50,116 bases of DNA from contig JALHRR010000008.1 of the NCBI GenBank assembly GCA_022841345.1, positions 96,994-147,109 on the forward strand, in the 5' to 3' direction. Under the pieces are notes generated by a model, which searched no databases, had not been told where the DNA came from, and saw only the letters and a program-made list of their open reading frames with translations. A program made the translations under genes and the position numbers. Position 1 is the first letter of the stretch. Each line of letters begins with the position of its first letter. This document shows positions 23,445-50,116 of the stretch, in pieces. Origin of the DNA: Saprospiraceae bacterium. GTDB lineage: Bacteria > Bacteroidota > Bacteroidia > Chitinophagales > Saprospiraceae.

Positions 23445-23850
23445 TTAATCCGCGTCTATAAAACAATCGGCTGCTTTTCCGGCTGTTTTGAATTCTAAAT
23501 TCTGCCTTCTAACTTCTCAAATCTCCCTTTCTTCGATGGTCGTCCCCAAAGCTTTGGGGATGACTTCGATCCAATATTTCATGAATTTGTAATTCATTTA
23601 CGACTAATCCACTTCAACAAACAAATCGGCTGCTTTCCGGCTGTTCCAAATCTGAAAACTGAAACCTGAAATCTGAAATCTCCTATATAACACTTTTGCA
23701 GAACATTGATATTCAATGATTTAAAAAATTCTAAATTCTACCTTCTAAATTCTAAATTTCAGGCCCCGCCGTGTTATCCTTCATCGAATGGTCCCCAAAG
23801 CTTTGGGGACGGGGACTGAAATCTGAAATCAGGACACTGGGAGTGAATGA
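23445..23850. repeat. cluster of modular intergenic repeats (GTCCCCAAAGCTTTGGGGA palindrome, CATGAATTTGTAATTCAT palindrome, CGGCTGCTTT(T)CCGGCTGTT core, CTGAAATCTGAAATC microsatellite)
   Basis: Two copies of the TCCCCAAAGCTTTGGGGA palindrome, at about 23548 and about 23793, plus the same sub-modules found at 37.9-38.1 kb and 47.5-48.1 kb. Confidence 0.75.
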
Positions 23851-30254: not shown

Positions 30255-30292
30255 AAAATGACATGTCCCCAAAGCTTTGGTGGATGACAAAA
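30255..30292. repeat. partial copy of the GTCCCCAAAGCTTTGG palindromic repeat
   Basis: ACATGTCCCCAAAGCTTTGGTGGATGAC matches the repeat core. Confidence 0.5.
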
Positions 30293-37417: not shown

Positions 37418-37519
37418 TAAATTCAGCTAGTCCTACTGTTCTTAAGTCGACAACTTTGCAGTATCGCTTTGATATAAGCTTCTTTTACTTTTGTCTTGAT
37501 ACAAAAGTAACAATCCCCT

Positions 37520-37545
37520 CCCCAAAGCTTTGGGGATTGGGGACA
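37520..37545. repeat. palindromic repeat copy TCCCCAAAGCTTTGGGGATTGGGGACAAGG
   Basis: Exact match to the palindrome core. Confidence 0.6.
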
Positions 37546-37864
37546 AGGCTGTTTAAACTTTCCTTGTTTTCTACGCTGATCTCCACCCAGCGCATGCAAA
37601 GCCGCTCGCCTATTAGTTTCTGTTGTGGATTTAAGAAGTTTTTATCAGAACAAAATCTGGCGAGGGACGAAACTCTCTCCTTAGCTCGACTTCTGTGCCT
37701 GCTTGCTAGAGTAATCAGTGTTGCCTCCTCAGAGCGCTCGAGAGACCGAGCTTCTTCGTCGGTTCGCTTCCTTGTAAAGTACATTTAGTACTTTCCTGCG
37801 TCGCTCATGGAAATTTTAAAAGGCCAAATAAAACCGCCCTCAAAAGCCGATGGTCTAAGTCTGT

Positions 37865-38395
37865 GACTTAGATCCCATAAATCATGAATTTGTAATTCAT
37901 CTACGACACATCCACCTCTTAAAACAAAATGGCTGTTAACTCATCATTCATAACTCCCCCAGCTGTTCACTTAGACCTGATCCTTTATACCTTATGCCTT
38001 CTTTGAAATCTTAATACTCCGATGGTCGTCCCCAAAGCTTTGGGGAGCGACTTCGATCCAATATCTCATGAATTTGCAATTCATCTACGACACATCCACT
38101 TCTACATACCCATCGGCTGTTATTGGCTGTTGCCGGCTGATTACTAAACTTCTAATCTTCTAAACTCCTCGACTAATCTCCCCCATAACTCCCACTGGCT
38201 GTTCACTTATGCCTAATGCCTTACACCTTATTCCAGTAGTTCTCATCTCTCATATCTGGCTGTGTTTCACTCATCATTCACCGCGAGGTTCCGCTTTGCT
38301 TCACTACGAGGTCCTGCGGATAACTCATCATTCATAACTCCGCCCCGTCTGTCATCTCATCTCTTATCTCTCATCTCTAAATACCTCTTCTGAAT
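37865..38395. repeat. two consecutive copies of the modular intergenic repeat (CATGAATTTG(T/C)AATTCATCTACGAC palindrome, GTCCCCAAAGCTTTGGGGA, GGCTGTT…CATAACTC modules)
   Basis: 37870-37990 and 38030-38150 share about 90% identity in the palindrome + ATCATGAATTTG…CATCTACGACACATCCAC segment; heptamer-type units (TCATAACTCC) recur at 37950 and 38330. Confidence 0.75.
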
Positions 38396-38418: not shown

Positions 38419-39318
38419 ATGAAACCACAGCTTCCAGAGGAAAAGAGTTTGAGTACGTTTGCTGCATGGCTGGCATTGCTGGCAATAGGTGCAACATGGG
38501 GGAGCAGTTATTATGTTATTAAGAAGGCATTGCTGGCGTTCGAGCCCTCGCAGATAGCGGCGATGAGGGTGAGTATTGCTTTTATATGTTTCCTGCCTAT
38601 GCTGTTTCTCAACCGAAAGAAAATTCAAAGAAAGCATATCAAGTATCTTATAATCGTTGGCGTTTGTGGAAGCGGGCTTCCCGCCATTTTATTTCCGCTG
38701 GCACAGACGCAGTTGACCAGCAGTTTTACGGGGATCTTGAGTTCAAGTACTCCGATTTTTACATTGAGTATTGGGGCTTTATTTTTCGGATTGATGCTTT
38801 CCAGGAGCAAATTAATTGGCGTACTTATAGGATTTGCTGGTGCAATTATGTTAGCTATTTTTTCTGGAAGCGGCGAAATCAGTGGAAATCCGTGGTATGC
38901 TTTGCTTGTATTACTTGCTACTGCATTTTACGGAATCAGCACAAACACCATCAATACATTTCTGAAGGAACTGGACACATTTACGATCAGTTCTTTTGCA
39001 TTTATGGTTATAGGAATTCCATCAATAATATATCTGTTCTCGGGTGATTTTGTGCATACTTTGACCACACATCCACAAGGTTGGTATTCATTTACACATG
39101 TTGCGATATTGGCGGTGGCAGGTACTTTTTTAGCTACTTTGTTTTTCTTTCAATTGATCAAATCCGCCGGAGTTGTATTTGCCTCAACCGTGAGTTATAT
39201 CATACCATGTGTAGCAGTTTTGCTGGGATTCCTGGATGGAGAGACGCTCAGTTTCTGGCATTTGATTGGAATGAGTTTGATTATTTGGGGAGTTTATATG
39301 ACGAGCAGAAGAACCTAA
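38419..39318 (+). CDS. DMT-superfamily (EamA-like) transporter
   Basis: 299 aa, 10 TM helices, duplicated EamA-domain architecture. Confidence 0.8.
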   Translation: MKPQLPEEKSLSTFAAWLALLAIGATWGSSYYVIKKALLAFEPSQIAAMRVSIAFICFLPMLFLNRKKIQRKHIKYLIIVGVCGSGLPAILFPLAQTQLTSSFTGILSSSTPIFTLSIGALFFGLMLSRSKLIGVLIGFAGAIMLAIFSGSGEISGNPWYALLVLLATAFYGISTNTINTFLKELDTFTISSFAFMVIGIPSIIYLFSGDFVHTLTTHPQGWYSFTHVAILAVAGTFLATLFFFQLIKSAGVVFASTVSYIIPCVAVLLGFLDGETLSFWHLIGMSLIIWGVYMTSRRT

Positions 39319-39400
39319 GATTTTAGGTTTCAGTTTTCAGATTTTAGATTTTAGATTTTAGATTTGAAACAGCCGTATTTAATTGAAAGTTGAAAGTTGA
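39318..39400. repeat. microsatellite/repeat copy (TTTAGAT×4, GAAACAGCCG, GAAAGTT×2)
   Basis: tttcagttttcagattttagattttagattttagatttgaaacagccg mirrors the repeat modules at 49925+. Confidence 0.6.
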
Positions 39401-39478
39401 GAGCTGACTTCAATAAGAATTTTATTTTTCACAAATTACACAAAGGGACACGAATAGATTTAAATAAATCCCGGGTGA

Positions 39479-39682
39479 TTAATGGAGTTGTTTCCCTACC
39501 TCTATACAGATATCTAAATAGTCATCTACTGCCTCCTCAAAAGCTGTTTTTAATAAATCTGATGAGTTAGCTTCATAGGTTATCAAGTCATTTATTCCTT
39601 CAATTTTCCCATAAAAGACTCCATCTTCTTCAGAAAAATTTACCGACCCGATAAATTCCTTGTAATTGATTGTGTCGTTCAT
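39479..39682 (-). CDS. HicB-like antitoxin N-terminal domain protein (short, orphan)
   Basis: The 67-aa ORF has the HicB N-domain pattern (YKEFIGSVNFSEEDGVFYGKIEGINDLITYEANSSDLLKTAFEEAVDDYL) but lacks the C-terminal DNA-binding domain, and no hicA is adjacent. Confidence 0.45.
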   Translation of the reverse strand: MNDTINYKEFIGSVNFSEEDGVFYGKIEGINDLITYEANSSDLLKTAFEEAVDDYLDICIEVGKQLH

Positions 39683-39764
39683 ATTTTCTCTATTTAATTC
39701 TACTCTTCATTATTTTCAATAAGACAAGCACTTAATCTGCTCTCACGCACTCACTCGCGTATGT

Positions 39765-39835
39765 AAAATTGGCTGTTGCATAGGCTGCTGGCTGTTTCAT
39801 TCGCCAATTCGCCAATTCACCAATTCGCTAATTTG
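39765..39835. repeat. GGCTGTT core + GCCAATTC×4 tandem octamer
   Basis: ggctgttgcataggctgctggctgtttcattcgccaattcgccaattcaccaattcgctaatt. Confidence 0.5.
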
Positions 39836-39875
39836 TTAATCGTAATTTTTTCACCCTCTACCTGCTCTGTCAATC

Positions 39876-40238
39876 TCAACTCTTCTTCCCGATCCAACCC
39901 AGATGTGTATGCTTAAAATCGTCTTTGTATTTTAGTCCGTATCCCAGGATTCTATCCATAGCGCTATGGCTGAAAAGAATAATACCTGCCAGATACATCC
40001 AGGGAGTGAAGCTCATAAAGCCCAAAACTGCTATTGCAATTCCGAATGCTTTGTGATGGACAAAATTGTATGTGAATGCGCCTATTGCAGGATTGATCAA
40101 ATATCCAATCATTGAAAGATCAGGCAGTAAAATTAATGCCGGAAAATACCACCAGGGATTTCCGGTATCGCTGAACAAATATATTCCCAAAGCAAATTGT
40201 GCTATTTCCTCTAATTGAAGCAATAATTTCATAGACAT
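39876..40238 (-). CDS. DUF4260-like small membrane protein
   Basis: 120 aa with four TM helices; hypothetical. Confidence 0.45.
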   Translation of the reverse strand: MSMKLLLQLEEIAQFALGIYLFSDTGNPWWYFPALILLPDLSMIGYLINPAIGAFTYNFVHHKAFGIAIAVLGFMSFTPWMYLAGIILFSHSAMDRILGYGLKYKDDFKHTHLGWIGKKS

Positions 40239-40328
40239 ATCTGATATTATTTTGCCTCAAGATAAGACACTGAAGCAAATACCTCCCAGAGATTCAGTAA
40301 AATCAACTCAAAAATCAGTATTTTCTGA

Positions 40329-41195
40329 TTATTGCCCTACTATGAGCTTTGTTGTTGCAGACTTTGCACCGGAAGTAGCCTGCATAATATATATTCCGGG
40401 AATCCATACTGAAACATCGGTTGTAAGGATCTCTCCGGGACTCAGCACTTTTTGTAGAATGACAGCTCCCATCATATTATAAAATGTGAGATGAATTTTT
40501 TCATTGATCCCACTATACTCGACAATATATTGATCTTTGGCAGGATTGGGGTAAGTTCTGATATTTACTTTTGCCAGCTCGGTGGTACTGAGAGTTATAC
40601 ATTCAAAGTCAAACTCAACAATTGGAAAATCCTGAACCTCATAACTTAGTAATGGACCTGTACCCGGATCGCAAACCGGACTCATTGGAAAGAAACACCT
40701 TGTTGAACCAAAATCTTCAATCATAATTTCTCCCCATTCCGCCCAGTGCTCATTATTCTCTGATGCAATTGTATTGATATATTGAATTATTTTGTCTTCT
40801 CCATTGAAGTTGATAATTCCGACTGAGTCAATCCCTACATAAATTGTGTCAAATTCATTTCTAACAACTTTTAAGGTATCGCCTGCCTGTAATGAAAAGT
40901 CATAAAGCAAATACTTGACATCATCCCTGTAATAGTAAATCTTATCCTCCTCCTTTCTGATATAACGGGGAGATATATCTCCACATGTGCAATCCCCTGC
41001 AATGACAAAAGCTTGTTCACCATTAATCAGAGTATCGCCTGTGATTTGAATTGTCTTTAATGTGTTGAAAGGAAAGCCAATATGTATCTGACAATAAGTC
41101 CATTCTGTCCCTAAGCCCAATTCAAATGATTGTGCGTTTACATTGTAATTAAAGAATAAAAATGCAGCAAAAATTAAGGGTAAAATTTGTCTCAT
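40329..41195 (-). CDS. secreted protein with type IX secretion system C-terminal sorting domain
   Basis: N-terminal signal peptide (MRQILPLIFAAFLFFNYNVNAQS); the C-terminal ~80 aa match a T9SS CTD (…VWIPGIYIMQATSGAKSATTKLIVGQ). Confidence 0.75.
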   Translation of the reverse strand: MRQILPLIFAAFLFFNYNVNAQSFELGLGTEWTYCQIHIGFPFNTLKTIQITGDTLINGEQAFVIAGDCTCGDISPRYIRKEEDKIYYYRDDVKYLLYDFSLQAGDTLKVVRNEFDTIYVGIDSVGIINFNGEDKIIQYINTIASENNEHWAEWGEIMIEDFGSTRCFFPMSPVCDPGTGPLLSYEVQDFPIVEFDFECITLSTTELAKVNIRTYPNPAKDQYIVEYSGINEKIHLTFYNMMGAVILQKVLSPGEILTTDVSVWIPGIYIMQATSGAKSATTKLIVGQ

Positions 41196-41322
41196 AAGGC
41201 AGGTTTTTAGAAAAAGGATTGAAGTATGTGTATCTAAAATACTCCATTAATTCTAAATCTGCTGCGTAAAAACAAATTAAAATAAAAAATTTAACATTTT
41301 CCTCAACCTTAACCCTCCATCC

Positions 41323-42081
41323 TTACAACCACTTTCGGAATTCTGACGCTTTTTCTTTGCTGACGGTGACAGATGGGAGCAAATCGTCTTTTACAAATAC
41401 TTCCAGTTTACCGCTTTCCAGCGTTTTAAAGCCGTGAATGAATGGCAAATGTAAAATGCTTTGCCTGTTTGTTCTGAAGAATTTAGCAGGATCCAAAATA
41501 TCATCCAATTCATCCAGTGATCTGTAATCAGTACTATATTTTTGGCCATTTACATCTACGAGAAAAATGATTTCCTGCTTCACAAATCCAACCACATCCA
41601 CCAAAGGAATCAGTAACATTTTCAAGCCCTGATGGACCATGAAACGCTCCTTGAATAATTTACCGGAATGCCCGGTTTGCAGCATTTGTTTTACCTGTCC
41701 CCAGTATTCAGAGTTCTCATATTTGGATACTACTTTTGAATATTTCTCCATGGCCTGTTGCAGGTCTTCTATGCTGACAGGCTTCAATAAATAGTCGATA
41801 CTGAATACTTTAAATGCCTTCAAAGCATATTCATCAAAGGCAGTGATAAATATTATCGGACAAGCCTGGGCCATTTCTGAAAGCGCATCAAAACTAACTC
41901 CATCGGATAACTGAATATCTGAGAAAATCAGATCAGGCAAATCATTTTTCTGAAACCATTCGCGGATTTCCCGATTGCTGGACAATGGACCTGCAATGGT
42001 CGCATCAGGATTTAAAGACCTCAGGTCATGCATCAATCCTGCCGCGATCAGAGATTCATCTTCTATGACCAGTAGTCTCAT
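41323..42081 (-). CDS. LytR/AlgR-family response regulator (receiver + LytTR DNA-binding domain)
   Basis: Receiver domain (LLVIEDE…D…SDIQLSDG) plus a C-terminal LytTR domain. Confidence 0.85.
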   Translation of the reverse strand: MRLLVIEDESLIAAGLMHDLRSLNPDATIAGPLSSNREIREWFQKNDLPDLIFSDIQLSDGVSFDALSEMAQACPIIFITAFDEYALKAFKVFSIDYLLKPVSIEDLQQAMEKYSKVVSKYENSEYWGQVKQMLQTGHSGKLFKERFMVHQGLKMLLIPLVDVVGFVKQEIIFLVDVNGQKYSTDYRSLDELDDILDPAKFFRTNRQSILHLPFIHGFKTLESGKLEVFVKDDLLPSVTVSKEKASEFRKWL

Positions 42082-43106
42082 AGTAAGGGAATTTTGACCC
42101 TGAAAATGTCTTCTGTTTCCTCCACCAACAAAGGTTCCTGACTAAGAAAATGATACAATTGAGTCAATTGAGCAAGGCCTTGCTGATTGGAATCCTGTAT
42201 ACTTTGTTTCAATTGCTTATTATTTTCTATAATCAAATATTCGCCTTCATCAAAGATACGAATGCTCAATGGTTTTGATAAATGGACTTCATTGTGCTTA
42301 ATAGCATTGTCAATCATAGTTTGAAGTGTAATCATCACAATTCCCTTGTCAAGTGAATCATCTTTCACATTTATATTAATGCTGAGGGCATTTCCAAATC
42401 GTATTTTCTGCAGCTCGACATATTCATTTATAAATTCCAGCTCTGTTTCCAGATTGACGACTTCATTCTCTTTATGCTGCAGCACGTAGCGGTACACTTT
42501 TGACATGTGTTTGACGAATCGGGAAGCCAGGGCCGGATCTGTCCTGATCAAATTATCCAGAGAGCTCAGGGAGTTGAATAACAGATGCGGATTAACCTGA
42601 TTCTTCAGCTGCTGATATTTCAAAGTGGCCTGTTCCCTTTGAAGCCTTTCAGCTTTCAGAGCATTTTCCTGCCATCGTTTGATAAAATATGAACTGATAA
42701 AGCCAAGGTTAATGGCAAAGGAAGCAAAAATGTCTGCCACAATCAGAAATACATAATGCTGCTTATTAAATTGAAATCCAAATGTTTCTCCAAAATAGTA
42801 AAGAGCTGTCTGTCTGCTTATCAGGAAAATCAAAGATCCTATTATTAGCTGAACTGTAATCCGGATGGCGATGCTCTTCTCAAAAGGTAATTTATTGTTT
42901 AGAAATTGATGGATTCGAATGAATAATTCCCAGTAAAGATAAATTGCGACTATAGAGAATAATGTAAGTGGTAACTCCCAATTGGCGGGCATTCTGAAGC
43001 CTACAACTTTCCTTGCAAAAATTCCCCCAAATGAAATGCAGAGAATGATGATTAATTTCATTCTCCAATACACGGGGACGGGAATTCCAAGGACTTTTTC
43101 TTTCAT
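42078..43106 (-). CDS. LytS/YehU-type sensor histidine kinase (PF06580-like) with N-terminal 4-TM intramembrane sensing region
   Basis: H-box context QVNPHLLFNSLSSL typical of His_kinase PF06580; no extracytoplasmic domain; 4-nt overlap with both neighbours. Confidence 0.8.
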   Translation of the reverse strand: MKEKVLGIPVPVYWRMKLIIILCISFGGIFARKVVGFRMPANWELPLTLFSIVAIYLYWELFIRIHQFLNNKLPFEKSIAIRITVQLIIGSLIFLISRQTALYYFGETFGFQFNKQHYVFLIVADIFASFAINLGFISSYFIKRWQENALKAERLQREQATLKYQQLKNQVNPHLLFNSLSSLDNLIRTDPALASRFVKHMSKVYRYVLQHKENEVVNLETELEFINEYVELQKIRFGNALSININVKDDSLDKGIVMITLQTMIDNAIKHNEVHLSKPLSIRIFDEGEYLIIENNKQLKQSIQDSNQQGLAQLTQLYHFLSQEPLLVEETEDIFRVKIPLL

Positions 43107-43786
43107 GTCATGCTGATAATTTTTCCATCCATCATTTCTATTACATTATCACTTTGAGCTGCAATATCCAGATCATGCGTTACAGTGATTATTGTCTGCC
43201 CATTTTCATGGGCCAATTTCATGAAAATATCGACAATACTGCGACTATTATTTTGGTCAAGATTTCCGGTGGGTTCGTCTCCCATGATAATGGACGGATC
43301 ATTGATCAATGCTCTTGCAATTGCGACTCTCTGTTGCTGTCCTCCGGATAATTTGGAAGCTGGTTTCAGAGCGTGTTCTGCCATATCAACAAGTTTAAGT
43401 TTGGCATAAGCTCTGTCCTCTATTTCTGAACCGGAATATTTTCCCAATCTCATTGCAGGAAGCATGATGTTTTTCAGCACAGAAAATTCAGGCAAAAGAA
43501 AGTGAAATTGAAACACAAATCCCAGGTGTTCATTTCTGAATCTTGCCAGTTCATTCTGACTTTGTCCGGTGACCACTTTTCCATTGAGCTCCAGTGTTCC
43601 CTGGTAGTCGGTGTCCATTGTAGACAAGATATACAACAAGGTAGATTTGCCACATCCTGACTTGCCGATGATGCTGTAAAACTTTGATTTCTCTATTTCA
43701 AATGAAATGTCCTTCAGAACTTCGAAAGTTACAGGATCATGAAATGACTTGGTGATATGATTGGCCTTGAGTGCTAAAGTTGACAT
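43103..43786 (-). CDS. ABC transporter ATP-binding protein (MacB/LolD-like)
   Basis: Walker A GKSGCGKST, signature LSGGQQQRVAIARAL, Walker B IIMGDEPTGNLD. Confidence 0.9.
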   Translation of the reverse strand: MSTLALKANHITKSFHDPVTFEVLKDISFEIEKSKFYSIIGKSGCGKSTLLYILSTMDTDYQGTLELNGKVVTGQSQNELARFRNEHLGFVFQFHFLLPEFSVLKNIMLPAMRLGKYSGSEIEDRAYAKLKLVDMAEHALKPASKLSGGQQQRVAIARALINDPSIIMGDEPTGNLDQNNSRSIVDIFMKLAHENGQTIITVTHDLDIAAQSDNVIEMMDGKIISMT

Positions 43787-43798
43787 GTTTAATATTTT

Positions 43799-45058
43799 TT
43801 ACCCGCGAATAATTTCTACAGGATCCACCTTCGCCGCCTTTCTTGAAGGAAACCAACCTGCAAACAGCGTAGTAACCACTCCGAAAACGATCCCAAGTGT
43901 ATAATGGAAGGGTTTAAAATTAACAGGGAATGTGTCAATATTGATAAAATCATTTTGCGGAAATGGCACCTGATTAATACCTGAACTAAAAATAAATCCC
44001 AGTAATAAACCCAGTATTCCACCAAGGCATCCAATGATCATGGATTGATACAGGAAAATCTTGCTCACATCTGAACCTTCGAAACCCGTCGCTTTCAAAA
44101 TGGCAATATCCCTCATCTTATTGATGATATTCATATTCATGATATTATAAATCCCAAAACCTGCAACGATCAACATAGTAATGGACACCACATAAGTCAT
44201 AGTATTCCTTATGATTTCTCCCACCAAAACTGCTTCGTTTGCGGTCTCCCAATCCTCCGCTTTGTAGCCGTAAGATTCTTCCAGTCTGACTCCCAGATTC
44301 TTCGCTTCATTGTAATCCTTCATCTTGATATGAATATCCGTGATATAGGAAGGATCAACCTGCAATAACTTTTGAACTGTTGAAATAGAGGCATAGCTTC
44401 GGGAATCATCAATCGCTCCCATTCCGAAAGCAAAAATCCCCATCACTCTGAAAAAAAATGTCTGCCCTTCAGGTGTAGTAAGCGATACTCTGTCACCGAC
44501 TGATGCTCCTAATTTTTTCGCCAGGCCCAGACCCATTAGTATTCCATCCTGATATGTCAGGAGATCTGTAATATTTCCTTCAATCATTTTCTCTGTCAGA
44601 TTGTATAGTTCATTTTCTTTCAGAATATCTGTACCTACAACCATACCGGGGAATTTCACAGGCCCATTGTTGTAAAACACTTGAGAAGAGACTTGAGAAA
44701 GCGCTCCTGATACTTCCGGCAATGAACTGATTTCTTCCAGAATTATATGGCCATCTTTCAGTTTAGGCAGTTCGTTTTTGGGCTTCGGATGATGCAGAAC
44801 CGTCATCCGGGCACTTGCAGCAAATGAATCCATTGCTACAGTCTTATTCTCAATCGGATGATAAATCTTGACATGGGGTGAACCGTCCAGTGTCAGTTCC
44901 ATCATAAACTCATTGACTCCGGTCATGAAGCTGATCATCGTAATGAACATAGAAATTCCGAATGTCACACCCATCATGGCGACAAATGTCTGCTTCTTTT
45001 TGGACAGCAAATGCGTCAAAGCAATATCCAGATTGACTGATTTTTTAAATAGTCGCAT
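43799..45058 (-). CDS. ABC transporter permease, FtsX/MacB-type with large periplasmic domain
   Basis: 419 aa; an N-terminal TM helix, a ~250-aa periplasmic domain, then three C-terminal TM helices with an FtsX fold. Confidence 0.85.
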   Translation of the reverse strand: MRLFKKSVNLDIALTHLLSKKKQTFVAMMGVTFGISMFITMISFMTGVNEFMMELTLDGSPHVKIYHPIENKTVAMDSFAASARMTVLHHPKPKNELPKLKDGHIILEEISSLPEVSGALSQVSSQVFYNNGPVKFPGMVVGTDILKENELYNLTEKMIEGNITDLLTYQDGILMGLGLAKKLGASVGDRVSLTTPEGQTFFFRVMGIFAFGMGAIDDSRSYASISTVQKLLQVDPSYITDIHIKMKDYNEAKNLGVRLEESYGYKAEDWETANEAVLVGEIIRNTMTYVVSITMLIVAGFGIYNIMNMNIINKMRDIAILKATGFEGSDVSKIFLYQSMIIGCLGGILGLLLGFIFSSGINQVPFPQNDFINIDTFPVNFKPFHYTLGIVFGVVTTLFAGWFPSRKAAKVDPVEIIRG

Positions 45059-45064
45059 ACGGAA

Positions 45065-46171
45065 TTATTTTAATATGATTTCATCATCTTCCAGCAAGCC
45101 TTCTACGATCTCAACTCTGTCCACATTCCGGATGCCGGTGACAACGTGGATAGTTGTGTCCGTTCCTTTTCTTTTTATCTTCAGGCTGTCTCCATTTTGC
45201 AATGCCTGACGTGGAATGGTGAGCACAGAAGGTTTTGAATCGATGAGAATATTTGCCTCCAGATTCAGACCATAGATACCTTTCTGCAAAGGTTCATCAA
45301 AAACAGCTTCAGCATAAAATGATTGCTCGGCGCGATTCAACTTGGGTAATATTCGTGATATTTTTCCTTTAAATGTTTTGCCCGGAAACGCATCCAGCTG
45401 AATGAAGACTGATTGTCCTTCAGTGACTCTGCTGAAATCTCTCTCATCAATTGTCAGGCGGGCTATCCAGTTGTCTTTCAATCCTCCCAGAGCAATGGGT
45501 TCATTTACATTGACACGTTCACCATTTTTCTTATAGATTTCAAAAATCACCCCATCCATAGCTCCTTTCACTTGTCCGTCAATATTCTGTGCCTGTAAGG
45601 TACGGTATTGATTCTCCGCTTGCTGAGATTCCATTTTGGTCTGAAGGAGAATGTTTTGTTTTTGTGTTTGCAATCCCATCCATTCATTTTTGGAGGCATC
45701 CCATTGAAGTTTTGCTCTTTCCCATTCAGACTTAGCCACTGCATCTTTTGCAAGTAATGCGTCAAGGCGTGAGAATTGCAGACTGTCGTTTGCTTTTTTC
45801 GAGGCAGCCGTTTTTATTCTGATATCCAATTCCTGCAGGGCAGGTGATTCTGACCCGGCTCTTGTACGGGCAGTTTCATAGATATTTCCCAGTAAACCTT
45901 CCTGTACTTTGCGGGTATTGGTTTCTATTCTAAACAACGGCTGACCTTTGCGGAAAGAATCATTTTCAATGACAAGCGACTGCACCAGGATGCCGTCGGT
46001 ATTGGCAAAGATTTTGTATTCCTGCCCGGGAATAAGCATACCTGAAGCATAAACAGCCTCAGCTATTTCAGTGCGTTCGGGTAAAATTGTTTCCTGTTTT
46101 GTTCCGCAGCTGAATAATAGTAATGGCATCAAAAATGCCGGGATAAGAAGTTTACAATTGAAGTAATGCAT
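45065..46171 (-). CDS. efflux periplasmic adaptor (membrane fusion protein, HlyD/MacA family)
   Basis: Lipoprotein-like N-terminus, long coiled-coil hairpin and a C-terminal beta-barrel domain. Confidence 0.85.
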   Translation of the reverse strand: MHYFNCKLLIPAFLMPLLLFSCGTKQETILPERTEIAEAVYASGMLIPGQEYKIFANTDGILVQSLVIENDSFRKGQPLFRIETNTRKVQEGLLGNIYETARTRAGSESPALQELDIRIKTAASKKANDSLQFSRLDALLAKDAVAKSEWERAKLQWDASKNEWMGLQTQKQNILLQTKMESQQAENQYRTLQAQNIDGQVKGAMDGVIFEIYKKNGERVNVNEPIALGGLKDNWIARLTIDERDFSRVTEGQSVFIQLDAFPGKTFKGKISRILPKLNRAEQSFYAEAVFDEPLQKGIYGLNLEANILIDSKPSVLTIPRQALQNGDSLKIKRKGTDTTIHVVTGIRNVDRVEIVEGLLEDDEIILK

Positions 46172-47447
46172 GATACAAATGCAAGTTTAGTCGGTTTTGA
46201 AAAAATGCCTGAGCGGCAGAGCTATAGTCCTGATAGACCTGAAAATATTCATCCAATGGGCTGTAACCTTCATTGAGTCTTAGCAATGCAAGTTCGAGGT
46301 TATTTTGAGTCAACTCAAATCTGCGGGTAGTAATTTCATAATTGGCCTGAGCTTCATTCAGAGATGAGGACCACTGAGCAATTTGAGAACCAGCTTCCCG
46401 AATGGTGTTGTCATATTGATATTGAGATTGCTTTAATTGGATGTTGGCTTTCTCCATCTGACGATGTTTCAAACCTCCGGAGAAAATTTGCCATTGTAAA
46501 CTAAGCCCTACTGTTCCATAATCGAATCCTATATACTGGCTACCATCAAACAGATCGCCGCTCTGCCATTGAAACTGGTAGCGGCCAACTGCGGAGAGCG
46601 TAGGATACAAGCCGGCTTTACGGGCATTTACTTTTGAAATCGACCAGTCTTTTTGTGCCTGAGCGAGCAATACAGCGGGTCTTCGTGAAGCTTCGGTTTG
46701 AGACGGATCAGTCAACAGCATTTGATTCAGGCTATCAGTGATGATGATTTGCTGATCTTCCGGAATTTGAAGGCTTGCTTTCAATTGCAAATAAGCCATT
46801 TCCTTTTGGTGGGTTGCATCTACAATTTGCTGATAAATTTGCTGACGAAGCGCCTCTACTCTGTTCAAGTCAAATGCTGAGATGATAGATTGTTCTTTTT
46901 TATCCTCAGCCACTCTGTAAAGTGAATCCGCCTGAGAGCGAAGTTCAGTCAGGTATGGCAGATAAGCTTCCCAAAATAAAGCCTGATAATATCTCTGCAA
47001 CACCGTGCTTTTCAATTGTTCCAGCTCCAATTTTTCTCTTAAAGGACCTTGAGTGGCTGCAATGCGTGCGGATTGAATGTCTCTCCATTTTTCAATCTGA
47101 ATGAGAGGCCATTGAATATCAATGCCGGCTCCCAATACCCATGGCTGGCCAAACTGAACTCTTTGAAAGGTTCCCGGAGGACCTCCAAAAATCTCTGCCG
47201 GAATTAGCTGAACCGGTAGATTGAGATTATAATCAGCATTGCTGTTGAGTCTCACTGTGGGCCACATACCGGCTTTTTGAATGCCAATCTCATTGTTCAA
47301 TTCTTCAGATTGAGAAGCAACAAGTTTGACTTTCGAATGCTGGGTTTCCAACAATCGGTAAGCATCATCCAGTGACTGGAATGTCACCTGAGCACTCAGA
47401 TTATGCTGAATCAAAAAACACAATGCAATTAATGTCCAAATCTTCAT
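46152..47447 (-). CDS. TolC-family outer-membrane efflux protein
   Basis: 431 aa with a signal peptide and duplicated OEP repeats. Confidence 0.85.
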   Translation of the reverse strand: MKIWTLIALCFLIQHNLSAQVTFQSLDDAYRLLETQHSKVKLVASQSEELNNEIGIQKAGMWPTVRLNSNADYNLNLPVQLIPAEIFGGPPGTFQRVQFGQPWVLGAGIDIQWPLIQIEKWRDIQSARIAATQGPLREKLELEQLKSTVLQRYYQALFWEAYLPYLTELRSQADSLYRVAEDKKEQSIISAFDLNRVEALRQQIYQQIVDATHQKEMAYLQLKASLQIPEDQQIIITDSLNQMLLTDPSQTEASRRPAVLLAQAQKDWSISKVNARKAGLYPTLSAVGRYQFQWQSGDLFDGSQYIGFDYGTVGLSLQWQIFSGGLKHRQMEKANIQLKQSQYQYDNTIREAGSQIAQWSSSLNEAQANYEITTRRFELTQNNLELALLRLNEGYSPLDEYFQVYQDYSSAAQAFFQNRLNLHLYHALLQL

Positions 47448-47539
47448 CGCAGTAAATTTTAATAAGTGGTTCAGACCACTCTAATTGTGAGCCAAAGTTA
47501 TCATCGTGTAAGCTATAAAAATCGGTGGAAATATGGAAG

Positions 47540-48078
47540 CCGCGGAAATGAGCGCTGAAGCGGAGAAAAATGCAGGGAAGCGGAGAGAGGGGTGGTAATA
47601 ATCGTAATGTGGAATCAATTTTTTTCGCTCCTCCACAGGAAAGCAAAGATTTGAGATTTCAGTCCCCAAAGCTTTGGGGATCAGTAGTTTCAGATTTCAG
47701 ATTGAACAGCCGAATAGCAGCCGATTTTTTTGTACGGATCAGATATTTCGTAGATGAATTTAAAATTCATGAAATATGGGATCGAAGTTATAAACTTCGA
47801 CCATCGGGGGCCGCGGAAATGAGAGCTGAAGCGGAAGAAAATGCAGGGAAACGGTGGGAATCTAGGTAGTAATTGTATTATTAAAGGAACTTGTTGCTCT
47901 TCAACAGGAAAGCAATGATCAGATTTCAGGTTTCAGTCCTAAAAGCTTTGGGGATCAGATTTCAGATTGAACAGCCGAATAGCAGCCGATTTTTTTGTAT
48001 GGATCGGATATTTCGGAGATGAATTAAAAATTCATGAAATATGGGATCGAAGTTATAAACTTCGACCTTCGGGGACCT
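47540..48078. repeat. tandem duplication (2 × ~270 bp) of a composite palindromic repeat unit
   Basis: Unit 1 spans 47540-47810 and unit 2 spans 47811-48078. Each unit carries CCGCGGAAATGAG(C/A)GCTGAAGCGGA…GTCC(C/T)(C/A)AAAGCTTTGGGGATCAG…GATTGAACAGCCGAATAGCAGCCGATTTTTTTGTA…GATGAATT(T/A)AAAATTCATGAAATATGGGATCGAAGTTATAAACTTCGACC(A/T)TCGGGG. The units are about 90% identical and contain four internal palindromes. Confidence 0.85.
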
Positions 48079-48359
48079 CAGGCAATGGCAGTAGAAGTGG
48101 AAAATAAGGGTAGGGAGCAGAGCAAAGATCATCTTATATTCGCCTTTCCGAACACGATTCGAAAAATTAAGACTTATTCAAATATGAATGTCGTATGTTA
48201 GAAGGGGTTACTATAAACCAGCTTATTGATTTATTATATCTTTATCAGCTTCATTGAATGAAGAACATGAAAATCAAATTATAAGGTAATCTAAATTCAG
48301 AAAATGAAGTTTTGAATTACCCCACCAATAGTTTTTAATCCATCATAGAATCTCAGCTT

Positions 48360-48950
48360 ATGAGTATACATCAACCATTTTCAAGGCGCTTCTTCCTCAA
48401 GACCACTTCCTTCACTGCTGCACTGGCATTTATACCCAAAGGTGTCAGGTCGATATATGAAGAGGTGAAGAGATTTATCGTCCCTGCTAAAGACGTGATT
48501 CCTTTAAAGGTTTCTATCAATAAAAAAGAGTACTCCATCCAGGCGGATACACGTACGACTTTGCTGGATCTGCTTAGAGAAGATTTGCAACTTACGGGCA
48601 CCAAGAAAGGATGTGATCACGGGCAATGTGGCGCTTGCACAGTGCATATAGATGGCGAAAGAGCATTGAGCTGTTTGACGCTGGCAGCTATGATTCCCGG
48701 CAAAGAAATTACCACTATAGAAGGACTTGCAGATGGAGACAAATTACATCCCATGCAGGAAGCATTTCTCGAGTGTGATGGCTTTCAGTGTGGGTATTGT
48801 ACGCCCGGACAGATCATGTCTGCTGTATCCTGTGTGAAGGAAGGTCATACAGGATCAGTCTCCGAAATCAAAGAATTCATGAGCGGTAATTTGTGTCGTT
48901 GCGGAGCTTACAACGGCATTGTTGAATCCATTCAAAAAGTAGCAAAATGA
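48360..48950 (+). CDS. (2Fe-2S)-binding small subunit of a xanthine-dehydrogenase-family molybdoenzyme, Tat-exported (PaoA-like)
   Basis: Tat signal (RRFFLKTTSFTAALAF); plant-type ferredoxin cluster (CDHGQCGACTV) and a second 4-Cys cluster (CGYCTPG…CRCGAY). Confidence 0.85.
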   Translation: MSIHQPFSRRFFLKTTSFTAALAFIPKGVRSIYEEVKRFIVPAKDVIPLKVSINKKEYSIQADTRTTLLDLLREDLQLTGTKKGCDHGQCGACTVHIDGERALSCLTLAAMIPGKEITTIEGLADGDKLHPMQEAFLECDGFQCGYCTPGQIMSAVSCVKEGHTGSVSEIKEFMSGNLCRCGAYNGIVESIQKVAK

Positions 48951-49927
48951 GACCATTTACATTTAACAAAGCCGAAAGCATTCATAAAGCATTGTCGGGA
49001 AGAAAGGTAACTGCTCAGTATATCGCAGGCGGAACGAACCTGCTGGACCTGATGAAAAAACATATTTCCCAGCCGGAATCATTGGTGGATGTCACATCAG
49101 TGCTTTCAAATAAAATTGAAACTGATAAAAAGGGTATCAGCATAGGTGCTATGGTACGCAACAGTGCACTGACTCTTGACAAAAACATATTAGATGATTT
49201 CCCTCTGCTGGCAAAAGCAATTCTGGCCGGAGCTTCTCCGCAGATCAGAAACATGGCTTCTACCGGAGGCAATATATTGCAACGGACTCGTTGTCCCTAC
49301 TTTTATGATGTCACGACGCCCTGCAATAAGAGAAATCCCGGAAGTGGCTGCAGCGCAATTAAAGGTGAAAATCGAATGAGTGCCATTGTAGGATACAGTG
49401 AACAATGCGTTGCTGTACATCCATCAGATATGAGTGTGGCATTGGCGGCATTGGATGCAAATGTGCTCATCATTGATAAAAATCAAAAAGAGCAAATTAT
49501 CCCCTTCAAAGACTTTCACAGATTGCCGGGAGACAGGCCGGAACTGGACAATAATCTTCCGCCAGGAGCGCTGATACAGTCGATCGAAATACCCCGAAAC
49601 GCATTCGCAAAAAACTGTGCATATCTCAAGGTCAGAGACAGGGATTCGTATGCATTTGCATTGGTATCGGTAGCGGCAGCTTTGGAATTATCGGGAGGAA
49701 AAATCAGAGCGGCAAGACTGGCATCCGGTGGAGTGGCCCACAAACCCTGGCGATGGTATGAAGCGGAGGAGTTTTTAAAAGGCAAGGAAGCGAATATTAA
49801 GAATTTTGAAGAGGCAGCTGAAATAGCGTTGAAAGGAGTTAAGCCTTTGTCGGGGAATGGATTTAAGGGGCCGATGCTGAAGGGGGCGATTGTGACGGGG
49901 TTGAAACAGTGCGTAGAAATGCAATAG
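48947..49927 (+). CDS. FAD-binding medium subunit of molybdopterin dehydrogenase (PaoB/CoxM-like)
   Basis: FAD_binding_5 domain (AGGTNLLDLMK) and the CO-dehydrogenase flavoprotein C-domain; the large Mo subunit is expected beyond the window end. Confidence 0.82.
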   Translation: MRPFTFNKAESIHKALSGRKVTAQYIAGGTNLLDLMKKHISQPESLVDVTSVLSNKIETDKKGISIGAMVRNSALTLDKNILDDFPLLAKAILAGASPQIRNMASTGGNILQRTRCPYFYDVTTPCNKRNPGSGCSAIKGENRMSAIVGYSEQCVAVHPSDMSVALAALDANVLIIDKNQKEQIIPFKDFHRLPGDRPELDNNLPPGALIQSIEIPRNAFAKNCAYLKVRDRDSYAFALVSVAAALELSGGKIRAARLASGGVAHKPWRWYEAEEFLKGKEANIKNFEEAAEIALKGVKPLSGNGFKGPMLKGAIVTGLKQCVEMQ

Positions 49928-50116
49928 ATTTCAGTTTTCAGATGTCAGTTTTCAGATTTTAGATTTGGAACAGCCGTAGCAGCCGATATTTTGTAAAGGG
50001 TGAATTTGTCGTAGACTTCGTTTGTAGGGAGTCGTTTGGTGGAGGTGTTTAGAAGTTTAGGATACAGCCTGATAGCAGCCGAATGGTTTATAGAAGTGAA
50101 TATGTCGTAGATTAAT
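49925..50116. repeat. repeat copy at window edge (TTTCAGA microsatellite, GGAACAGCCGTAGCAGCCGAT core ×2)
   Basis: tttcagttttcagatgtcagttttcagattttagatttggaacagccgtagcagccgat… and …gatagcagccgaatgg, matching the 47.7/48.0 kb units. Confidence 0.65.

Follow-up and report, generated by a model that had tools for sequence, protein, structure and literature searches.

A tripartite MacB-type pump operon with its own PF06580/LytTR two-component system and a phased direct-repeat operator in Bacteroidota

The question raised by the minus-strand gene run 47447→41323, within a 50,116-nucleotide (nt) stretch of Saprospiraceae bacterium DNA (contig JALHRR010000008.1; the whole stretch is termed the window), is whether an ABC exporter with its own outer-membrane channel is controlled by the sensor histidine kinase (HK) and LytTR-family response regulator (RR) that are encoded directly behind it, and what such a kinase would sense. 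We found six tightly coupled genes, joining the pump to this two-component system (TCS) in a linkage that is conserved among Bacteroidota, and preceded by an operator that has a fixed phasing to its promoter and co-occurs with the HK-RR pair. Judging from the sequences, the run is probably an autoregulated, inducible tripartite efflux or detoxification operon.

The open reading frame (ORF) listing returned the six genes, and a seventh located downstream, at the positions given in the initial annotation, all on the minus strand; domains of the gene products were assigned with Pfam and NCBIfam. The run begins with the gene for a TolC-family outer-membrane factor (outer-membrane efflux protein, OEP; 46152-47447; 431 amino acids [aa] with an N-terminal signal peptide; PF02321 in two stretches, E 3e-29), followed by a periplasmic adaptor of the HlyD/RND_mfp type (membrane fusion protein, MFP; 45065-46171; a 368-aa lipoprotein with PF16576, PF13437 and TIGR01730), a MacB-type (type VII ABC) permease (43799-45058; 419 aa; PF12704 MacB_PCD and PF02687 FtsX), an ABC ATPase encoded as a separate polypeptide (43103-43786; 227 aa; PF00005, E 3e-32), the intramembrane-type HK (42078-43106; 342 aa; PF06580, E 5e-24) and the RR (41323-42081; 252 aa; PF00072 and PF04397). 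The OEP and MFP genes overlap by 20 nt, gaps of 6 nt and 12 nt separate MFP from permease and permease from ATPase, and the 4-nt ATGA overlaps reported for the ATPase/HK and HK/RR junctions were both read from the sequence. Domains, junctions and the conserved linkage described below uphold the claim that this is one compact operon for a MacB-type tripartite pump together with its own PF06580/LytTR TCS. Scans of positions 39300-48500 for sigma-70 promoters (31 vs 26 expected) and intrinsic terminators (7 vs 6.1 expected) gave background and are uninformative for a Bacteroidota genome; no Rfam family reached its gathering threshold across the 50-kb window.

The permease has the MacB arrangement of four transmembrane (TM) helices, i.e., TM1 (residues 24-42), a large periplasmic MacB_PCD domain between TM1 and TM2, and then TM2-4 of the FtsX part, with the remaining TM helices past residue 286 by hydropathy (PF12704, residues 24-251; PF02687, residues 290-413). 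The HlyD-type adaptor and TolC-family channel that are cognate to MacB are present as MFP and OEP in the same operon. The topology is that of the MacB fold; the pump is not a MacB equivalog, because the ATPase is split off and the scores on NF007826 (permease 62 bits, ATPase 182 bits) lie far below its cutoff of 966. The MFP scored above the cutoff for TIGR01730 RND_mfp (103 bits vs 94.9) and has a lipobox, LFSC, with Cys22, as read from the sequence; the OEP scored under the cutoff of every TolC/NodT model of NCBIfam. Walker A is intact in the ATPase (GKSGCGKST, residues 41-49), whose top NCBIfam model is LolD-like (240.6 bits, under the cutoff of 307.75). The solved structures closest to the permease are LolF, LolC, LolE and MacB (E 1e-22 to 1e-15). 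Scores for MacA, MacB, DevA and DevB models were all far under cutoff. Membership in LolCDE was rejected (TIGR02212, 168.8 vs 362.45 bits; TIGR02211, 240.6 vs 307.75 bits; the operon has an MFP and an OEP), as was membership in the DevBCA type (TIGR02982, 170 vs 295.8 bits; TIGR02971, 33 vs 129 bits; MFP and OEP present).

The prediction that the kinase has four TM helices and no periplasmic domain agreed with hydropathy and with an AlphaFold2 model (mean pLDDT 79.7), in which helices span residues 13-35, 41-72, 79-105 and 115 onward, the fourth running on into the helix of the dimerization and histidine phosphotransfer (DHp) domain, followed by a compact catalytic (CA) domain. The best Foldseek match of this model was the GanS kinase core, 6swj (E 2e-9), and the closest homologue (93% identity) is from a Saprospiraceae metagenome-assembled genome (MAG). 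The phospho-acceptor His174 in the DHp domain is invariant in the 31 aligned sequences and in 69 relatives, and a PF06580 domain with a conserved His is the mark of LytS-type kinases. No match of the HK to 5TMR-LYT (PF07694) was seen even at E≤10, and there are merely four TM helices. The receiver residues D8, D55, T80 and K100 of the RR are intact, and its top NCBIfam models, BtsR and LytR, are both far below cutoff. The RR joins a receiver to a LytTR domain, as LytTR systems do, and phased direct repeats that it presumably binds are located upstream of the operon.

Conservation of the pump-TCS linkage was assessed with a survey anchored on the kinase, in which a 31-sequence alignment led to 80 loci in species-representative genomes and the window proteins were mapped onto these loci. 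The HK was matched nearly full length, including the TM region, in 45 loci, 41 of them assessable. The genes MFP-FtsX-ABC-HK-RR were colinear and on one strand in 35/41, so the co-occurrence across Bacteroidota looked for on the strength of the initial annotation is substantial, and these 35 loci span Chitinophagales, Saprospirales and many Cytophagales genera; the pump-linked loci include no Flavobacteriia and no Bacteroidia. Spirosoma fluviale, Emticicia aquatica, Arundinibacter roseus and Chryseolinea lacunae are examples of culturable species that have the cassette. Identities to the window across the orthologous cassettes were 60-72% for the ATPase, 49-59% for the permease, 36-47% for the HK and 38-49% for the RR. 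The OEP gene was adjacent in 16/34 orthologous cassettes, plus all close relatives, and a subset of Cytophagales cassettes is without it. All six genes recur in closer relatives (HK identities of 93, 85, 58 and 49%), where three distinct genomic contexts surround them; therefore, the cassette behaves as a self-contained unit. The ATPase and HK genes overlap or are ≤30 nt apart in 21/33 loci, and the HK and RR genes likewise in 50/57. In a neighbour-joining tree the pump-linked kinases formed one large clade, for which paralogues sharing the kinase core only, without pumps, were the outgroup. A reciprocal survey anchored on the permease (52 assessable metagenome loci) placed HK and RR genes downstream in 24/52, including 14/14 loci with permease identity of at least 53% and 0/13 at ≤46.2%. 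From this split it follows that the TCS-linked pumps are a subclade of a broader Bacteroidota family of MFP-FtsX-ABC pumps, whose TCS-less sister clade is large and widespread in the phylum.

Direct repeats of the LytTR type, anticipated upstream of position 47447, are present there and conserved in orthologues, as judged by alignment, pattern search and a spacing test. When the region upstream of the operon was aligned between the window and four relatives, a CCGCTTC-like repeated motif emerged. In the window it forms an operator of three direct repeats on the minus strand (47584-47536), namely TCCGCTTC at 47584-47577, TCCGCTTC at 47564-47557 and GCGGCTTC at 47543-47536, with start-to-start spacings of 20 and 21 nt. 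A scoring scan of both strands found this operator as the sole 16/16 box pair in the 50-kb window, and a degenerate two-box pattern gave 2 matches over the 50 kb (the operator and a duplicated copy) vs 0.08 expected. For the spacing test, every spacing from 11 to 44 nt was tried on 34 orthologous promoters for a direct repeat matching in at least 8/10 positions. Such a repeat was found at exactly 21 nt in 15/34 loci and at other spacings in 0-4 loci; the shuffled controls averaged 1.8 loci, with a maximum of 7 at any spacing. The consensus of 28 sites was tTCCgcTTC-N12/13-TCCGCTTCg; the box variant (T)ACACTTC, which replaces CCGCTTC, is confined to one Cytophagales clade. Over the 200 nt that precede the cassette, box density was ~100-fold higher than in the rest of 2.6 Mb of locus sequence.

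The promoter consensus of Bacteroidota consists of TTTG at -33 and TAnnTTTG at -7. The sequence TAACTTTG (47500-47493, minus strand), an exact match to TAnnTTTG and a putative -7 element, lies 35 nt past the proximal box, leaving 45 nt to the ATG of the OEP gene. TTTG starts exactly 39 or 38 nt past the proximal box in 18/29 orthologous promoters, and another TTTG is often seen at +11; this geometry of box and TTTG fits the -33/-7 promoter, and the operator T(C/A)C(G/A)CTTC-N13-T(C/A)C(G/A)CTTC lies 11 nt before the -33 element. The geometry of the repeats matches that of published LytTR sites, which have 9-11-nt repeats and 11-13-nt spacers (PMC4847170); AgrA, for example, binds direct repeats directly upstream of its promoters (PMC4227749).

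We found that the operator follows the regulator rather than the pump. Within the HK clade, the HK-RR pair occurs in three loci (L009, L010 and L033, from Mucilaginibacter and a Bacteroidetes MAG) beside a tripartite ABC-2 exporter composed of an OEP, an HlyD protein, two ATPases and two ABC-2 permeases, which is structurally unrelated to the MacB-type pump. In two others (L003 and L086, from Chitinophaga deserti and Anseongella) it occurs beside the gene for a CarboxypepD_reg/Plug outer-membrane protein (OMP), and in L005 with a flavin adenine dinucleotide (FAD) monooxygenase only. The ABC-2 and OMP loci have a 15-16/16 box pair that precedes the first gene of the neighbouring operon by 77-104 nt, in the form TCCG(C/T)TTC-N13-TCCG(C/T)TTC (L009 11762-11790; L010 11888-11916 and 9850-9878; L033 3837-3865; L003 6703-6731; L086 5642-5670); no operator was found in L005. 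Boxes scoring at least 14/16 were present in 9/19 TCS-linked promoters vs 2/23 promoters of the TCS-less sister pumps (Fisher p=0.011). This co-occurrence of operator and HK-RR pair across exporters is the main evidence that the RR would bind the repeats and that the operon would be autoregulated.

In the mechanism that we favour, the MacB-type (type VII) exporter, with its separate ATPase, lipoprotein MFP and TolC-like OEP, would span to the outer membrane and expel a periplasmic or membrane-partitioned compound across it. The four-TM HK would phosphorylate the LytTR RR, the RR would bind the 21-nt-phased T(C/A)C(G/A)CTTC repeats abutting the -33/-7 promoter, and the bound RR would activate, rather than repress, transcription of all six genes, which would constitute a positive feedback. 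The TM bundle of the HK would itself perceive a membrane-active or hydrophobic toxic compound, or a perturbation of the membrane. A detoxification role is suggested by the FAD monooxygenase and GNAT acetyltransferase encoded in some cassettes. The clade-specific TM residues R32, P74, R82, Q86 and N133 of the HK are conserved whatever the type of exporter and are variable in unlinked paralogues. The MacB-type exporter HrtBA is under the control of ChrS and HrrS, multi-TM kinases that have no extensive loops and for which ligand sensing within the membrane has been proposed (PMC5812335). Direct intramembrane sensing most likely applies to the HK as well, and this is favoured because the HK clade is also found beside ABC-2 exporters or no pump, because its TM residues do not depend on the exporter, because gaps separate ATPase and HK genes in some relatives, and because the parts of a Bce module are absent.

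Several points weigh against the proposed circuit. With simple scoring, the boxes were weak or went unrecognised in about half of the orthologous promoters, and binding of the RR to the boxes is deduced from co-occurrence and geometry. No Pfam HATPase_c match was obtained for the HK even at E≤10, or for any of the 69 relatives examined, and within residues 293-311 the motifs ENNxQ and SNxQGL, ~10 residues apart, are conserved in place of G1 (DxGxG) and G2 (GxGxGL). As far as the sequences tell, this replacement is an oddity of the whole HK family; since no HATPase_c signature is recognisable and canonical G1/G2 motifs are missing, catalytic competence is assumed from the predicted fold, which is kinase-like. 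The tight translational coupling of ATPase and HK would also fit a stoichiometric transporter-kinase complex, and a housekeeping role of the pump in the envelope is still conceivable, the permease and ATPase being closest to LolC/E/F and LolD.

A reading of transporter activity by the HK is less likely than direct perception. As in the Bce modules to which the initial annotation had pointed, the four-TM HK would bind no stimulus of its own and, complexed with the MacB-type transporter, would report its activity or conformational cycling, whereby pump expression would be matched to need. We hold this to be unlikely, although it has points in its favour. The kinase is without an extracytoplasmic domain, its gene overlaps that of the ATPase by 4 nt and is similarly close in most orthologues, the HK clade is mostly pump-linked, and the type VII fold is common to MacB and BceB; BceS of BceAB-S was also among the Foldseek matches, at a level merely generic for HKs (TM-score 0.30). 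However, the same HK clade is found beside ABC-2 pumps, beside an OMP gene or with the monooxygenase only, its operator is retained in all of these loci except L005, where it was not found, and the clade-specific TM residues are kept across the in-clade loci, L005 and L086 included. In some Cytophagales cassettes, the ATPase and HK genes are separated by 130-340-nt gaps or by the monooxygenase gene; no convincing boxes for an internal promoter were found in the ATPase-to-HK gaps of these relatives. BceRS-BceAB resembles the operon in that the genes of a type VII ABC exporter adjoin those of a TCS that induces them and has a kinase devoid of an extracytoplasmic sensor domain. It differs in that the permease BceB has 10 TM helices and a large extracellular loop (TM7-TM8), the RR is of the OmpR type, MFP and OEP are both lacking, and the modules are Firmicutes-specific (PMC3023708); here we found a 419-aa, four-TM MacB_PCD permease, a four-TM PF06580 kinase (BceS has two TM), a LytTR RR and a tripartite pump. 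Neither a BceB-type permease, nor a BceS-type kinase with an OmpR-family regulator, nor the restriction to Firmicutes applies. These observations somewhat disfavour sensing via the transporter. It is rather unlikely, too, that the cassette is a Bacteroidota counterpart of the Firmicutes Bce modules by convergence, with a sensor-less PF06580 kinase of non-canonical ATP-binding site, complexed with the tripartite pump, reporting flux to the LytTR RR; if it were, convergent flux-sensing logic would be widespread in Chitinophagia, Saprospiria and Cytophagia.

The pump might instead be a regulated housekeeping exporter for an endogenous envelope component (a lipid, lipoprotein, pigment or exopolymer precursor), tuned by the TCS to envelope stress and not to a xenobiotic, which we regard as quite unlikely. 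The best family and structure matches of permease and ATPase are indeed to Lol proteins, the large TCS-less sister clade suggests a general cellular role of the pump family, and the cassette occurs in unrelated genomic contexts without biosynthetic neighbours; on the other hand, all Lol equivalog cutoffs were missed, Lol systems have no MFP and OEP, the cassette is missing from many Bacteroidota (with neither Flavobacteriia nor Bacteroidia among its pump-linked loci), and autoregulation, operator control and accessory enzymes of a drug-modifying type fit inducible detoxification better. Peptide quorum sensing and bacteriocin loci are the classical targets of LytTR regulators, and one may envisage that the pump exports, or immunises against, a self-made peptide or toxin, with a protein of the type IX secretion system (T9SS) encoded downstream as a regulated product. 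Besides the classical ties of LytTR regulators, this would agree with the score of the ATPase on a lactococcin-972-type bacteriocin-export model (187 bits, under cutoff) and with the position of the T9SS gene 127 nt past the RR gene, with no convincing terminator between. It is nonetheless very unlikely, given that no conserved peptide, precursor or biosynthetic gene was next to the cassette in any context examined, that neither the closest relative nor any distant cassette has the T9SS gene, which is also without an operator, and that the RR gene is followed by one on the opposite strand in 26/54 loci.

The T9SS gene (40329-41195, minus strand) lies outside the conserved module and encodes a beta-rich, 288-aa protein with the features of a type-A cargo, i.e., an N-terminal signal peptide and a C-terminal sorting domain with an Ig-like fold (CTD; Por_Secre_tail/TIGR04183); fold searching recognised the sorting domain and was uninformative for the rest (model pLDDT 70, moderate). 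The view that it is regulated cargo, an exported substrate or an immunity factor did not hold up. The best box pair upstream of 41195 scored 12/16, which is background and no LytTR site, and the gene corresponds to an indel of ~1.05 kb, such that the closest relative (L081, HK 93%) passes from the RR gene straight to a DUF4260 gene. In the relatives carrying the gene, the protein is 54-84% identical (58% in L082, where the kinase is 85% identical); no counterpart was found in the more distant cassette loci, and what follows the RR gene in 54 TCS-linked loci is a different, unrelated gene from one locus to the next. A search of 5.8 billion proteins returned only 11 homologues, the distant ones having other T9SS cargo genes, and no pump, as neighbours. 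The T9SS gene is a lineage-specific passenger and no conserved component of the cassette. Read-through from the operon into this gene is possible, as the 127-nt spacer has no convincing terminator; that spacer shows no significant structure (z -0.95), and repeat finding over 41150-41400 gave short chance-level inverted repeats alone. Right after the T9SS stop codon (40239-40335) there is a small hairpin (AAUCAG...CUGAUU) with a U-run (z -2.8 vs shuffles), possibly a terminator for such read-through; neither folding result settles the matter. Farther on, the octamer GCGAATTG/GTGAATTG is repeated in a short tandem array (39799-39826) between the DUF4260 gene and a 67-aa ORF (39479-39682) without family match.

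The 900-nt spacer upstream of the operon contains a tandem duplication of ~270 nt (47539-47809 / 47810-48080, 83% identical), within which is a second, degenerate copy of the operator (47855-47828, minus strand; box pair 15/16). With a degenerate third box and no -7 element behind it, this copy is probably a relic. The distal part of each 270-nt unit is formed by one copy of a dispersed intergenic repeat family (REP/MITE-like) built around the palindrome TCCCCAAAGCTTTGGGGA, with copies at 23457-23830, 30265-30287, 37519-37537, 37847-37906, 38028-38131, 47662-47809, 47937-48077 and 49945-49995; related pieces occur in L081 and L082. The small ORFs of the spacer were rejected as signal peptides, since they lie in repeats and the spacer of the relative L082 is merely ~380 nt. 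Divergent from the operon is a xanthine-dehydrogenase-type cluster (48360-49927, plus strand, and beyond) with 2Fe-2S and FAD-binding subunits, joined in relatives by a molybdopterin subunit; this neighbourhood is kept solely in the closest relatives L081, L082 and L088.

A Cytophagales clade of the Chryseolinea/Ohtaekwangia type has extra genes within the cassette. An FAD-dependent monooxygenase (NF005243, above cutoff) is encoded between ATPase and kinase (L007 8601-9761, L015 8750-9907, L016 8468-9625, L047 8696-9841; also L005 8824-9975, where no pump is present), and a GNAT-like acetyltransferase of ~174 aa between kinase and regulator (L002 10906-11427, L007 10916-11446, L016 10986-11504, L034 10993-11517). 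The L016 cassette additionally encodes a DUF2834 protein.

We compared the operon with further known systems. It shares with MacAB-TolC, DevBCA-HgdD and YknXYZ a four-TM FtsX permease with MacB_PCD, an HlyD-type adaptor and a TolC-family channel; the ATPase is fused to the permease in MacB and is a separate polypeptide here, as in DevCA and YknYZ. To our knowledge, MacAB is not encoded in one operon with a dedicated TCS. The haem-detoxification systems ChrSA-HrtBA and HssRS-HrtAB of Actinobacteria and Firmicutes are alike in having a split MacB-type exporter (ATPase plus four-TM FtsX permease) and an adjacent dedicated TCS. Their genes are usually divergent and not fused in one operon, their kinases and regulators are of families other than PF06580/LytTR with six TM helices vs four here, and they have no MFP or outer-membrane channel; nothing in the window operon points to haem. 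LytSR, BtsSR/YpdAB and AgrCA are similar in the PF06580 DHp domain of the kinase (LytSR/BtsSR), in the LytTR output, and in two or three direct repeats directly upstream of the promoter. Unlike LytS, BtsS and YpdA, the HK has no 5TMR-LYT, no GAF and no Pfam HATPase_c match and its G1/G2 motifs are altered, and the target here, unlike that of the LytSR/BtsSR-type systems, is a tripartite ABC pump. A lead only is offered by NatKR-NatAB of Bacillus subtilis, in which a small multi-TM kinase and a LytTR regulator control an adjoining ABC exporter; NatAB is a Gram-positive Na+ exporter of the ABC-2 type with no MFP or OEP. The box TCCGCTTC is unlike the published YpdB motif GGCATTTCAT (PMC4847170).

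A search of the literature, which also covered Bce-like systems in Bacteroidetes, found no published description of the cassette or its operator. To this extent the initial claim that the architecture is not a described one stands; it has to be qualified in that the arrangement is abundant and functionally analogous to known MacB-type exporters under TCS control, for example ChrSA-HrtBA. Since efflux pumps governed by a TCS are well known, no new principle is involved, and the cassette is an abundant, uncharacterised Bacteroidota variant of the TCS-controlled, autoregulated efflux/detoxification pump design. PF06580/LytTR pairs are among the commonest TCS in Bacteroidota, and our literature search retrieved no study of such a Bacteroidota pair or its target; with the present results one large clade of these pairs gains a concrete predicted target, the tripartite ABC pump operon that houses the pair, and a defined operator. 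Intramembrane ligand sensing and transporter-coupled sensing can now be separated by a clear experiment. The operator enables regulon prediction in hundreds of environmental Bacteroidota genomes, which could help to explain inducible tolerance to antimicrobials and membrane-active compounds in soil, wastewater and aquatic communities.

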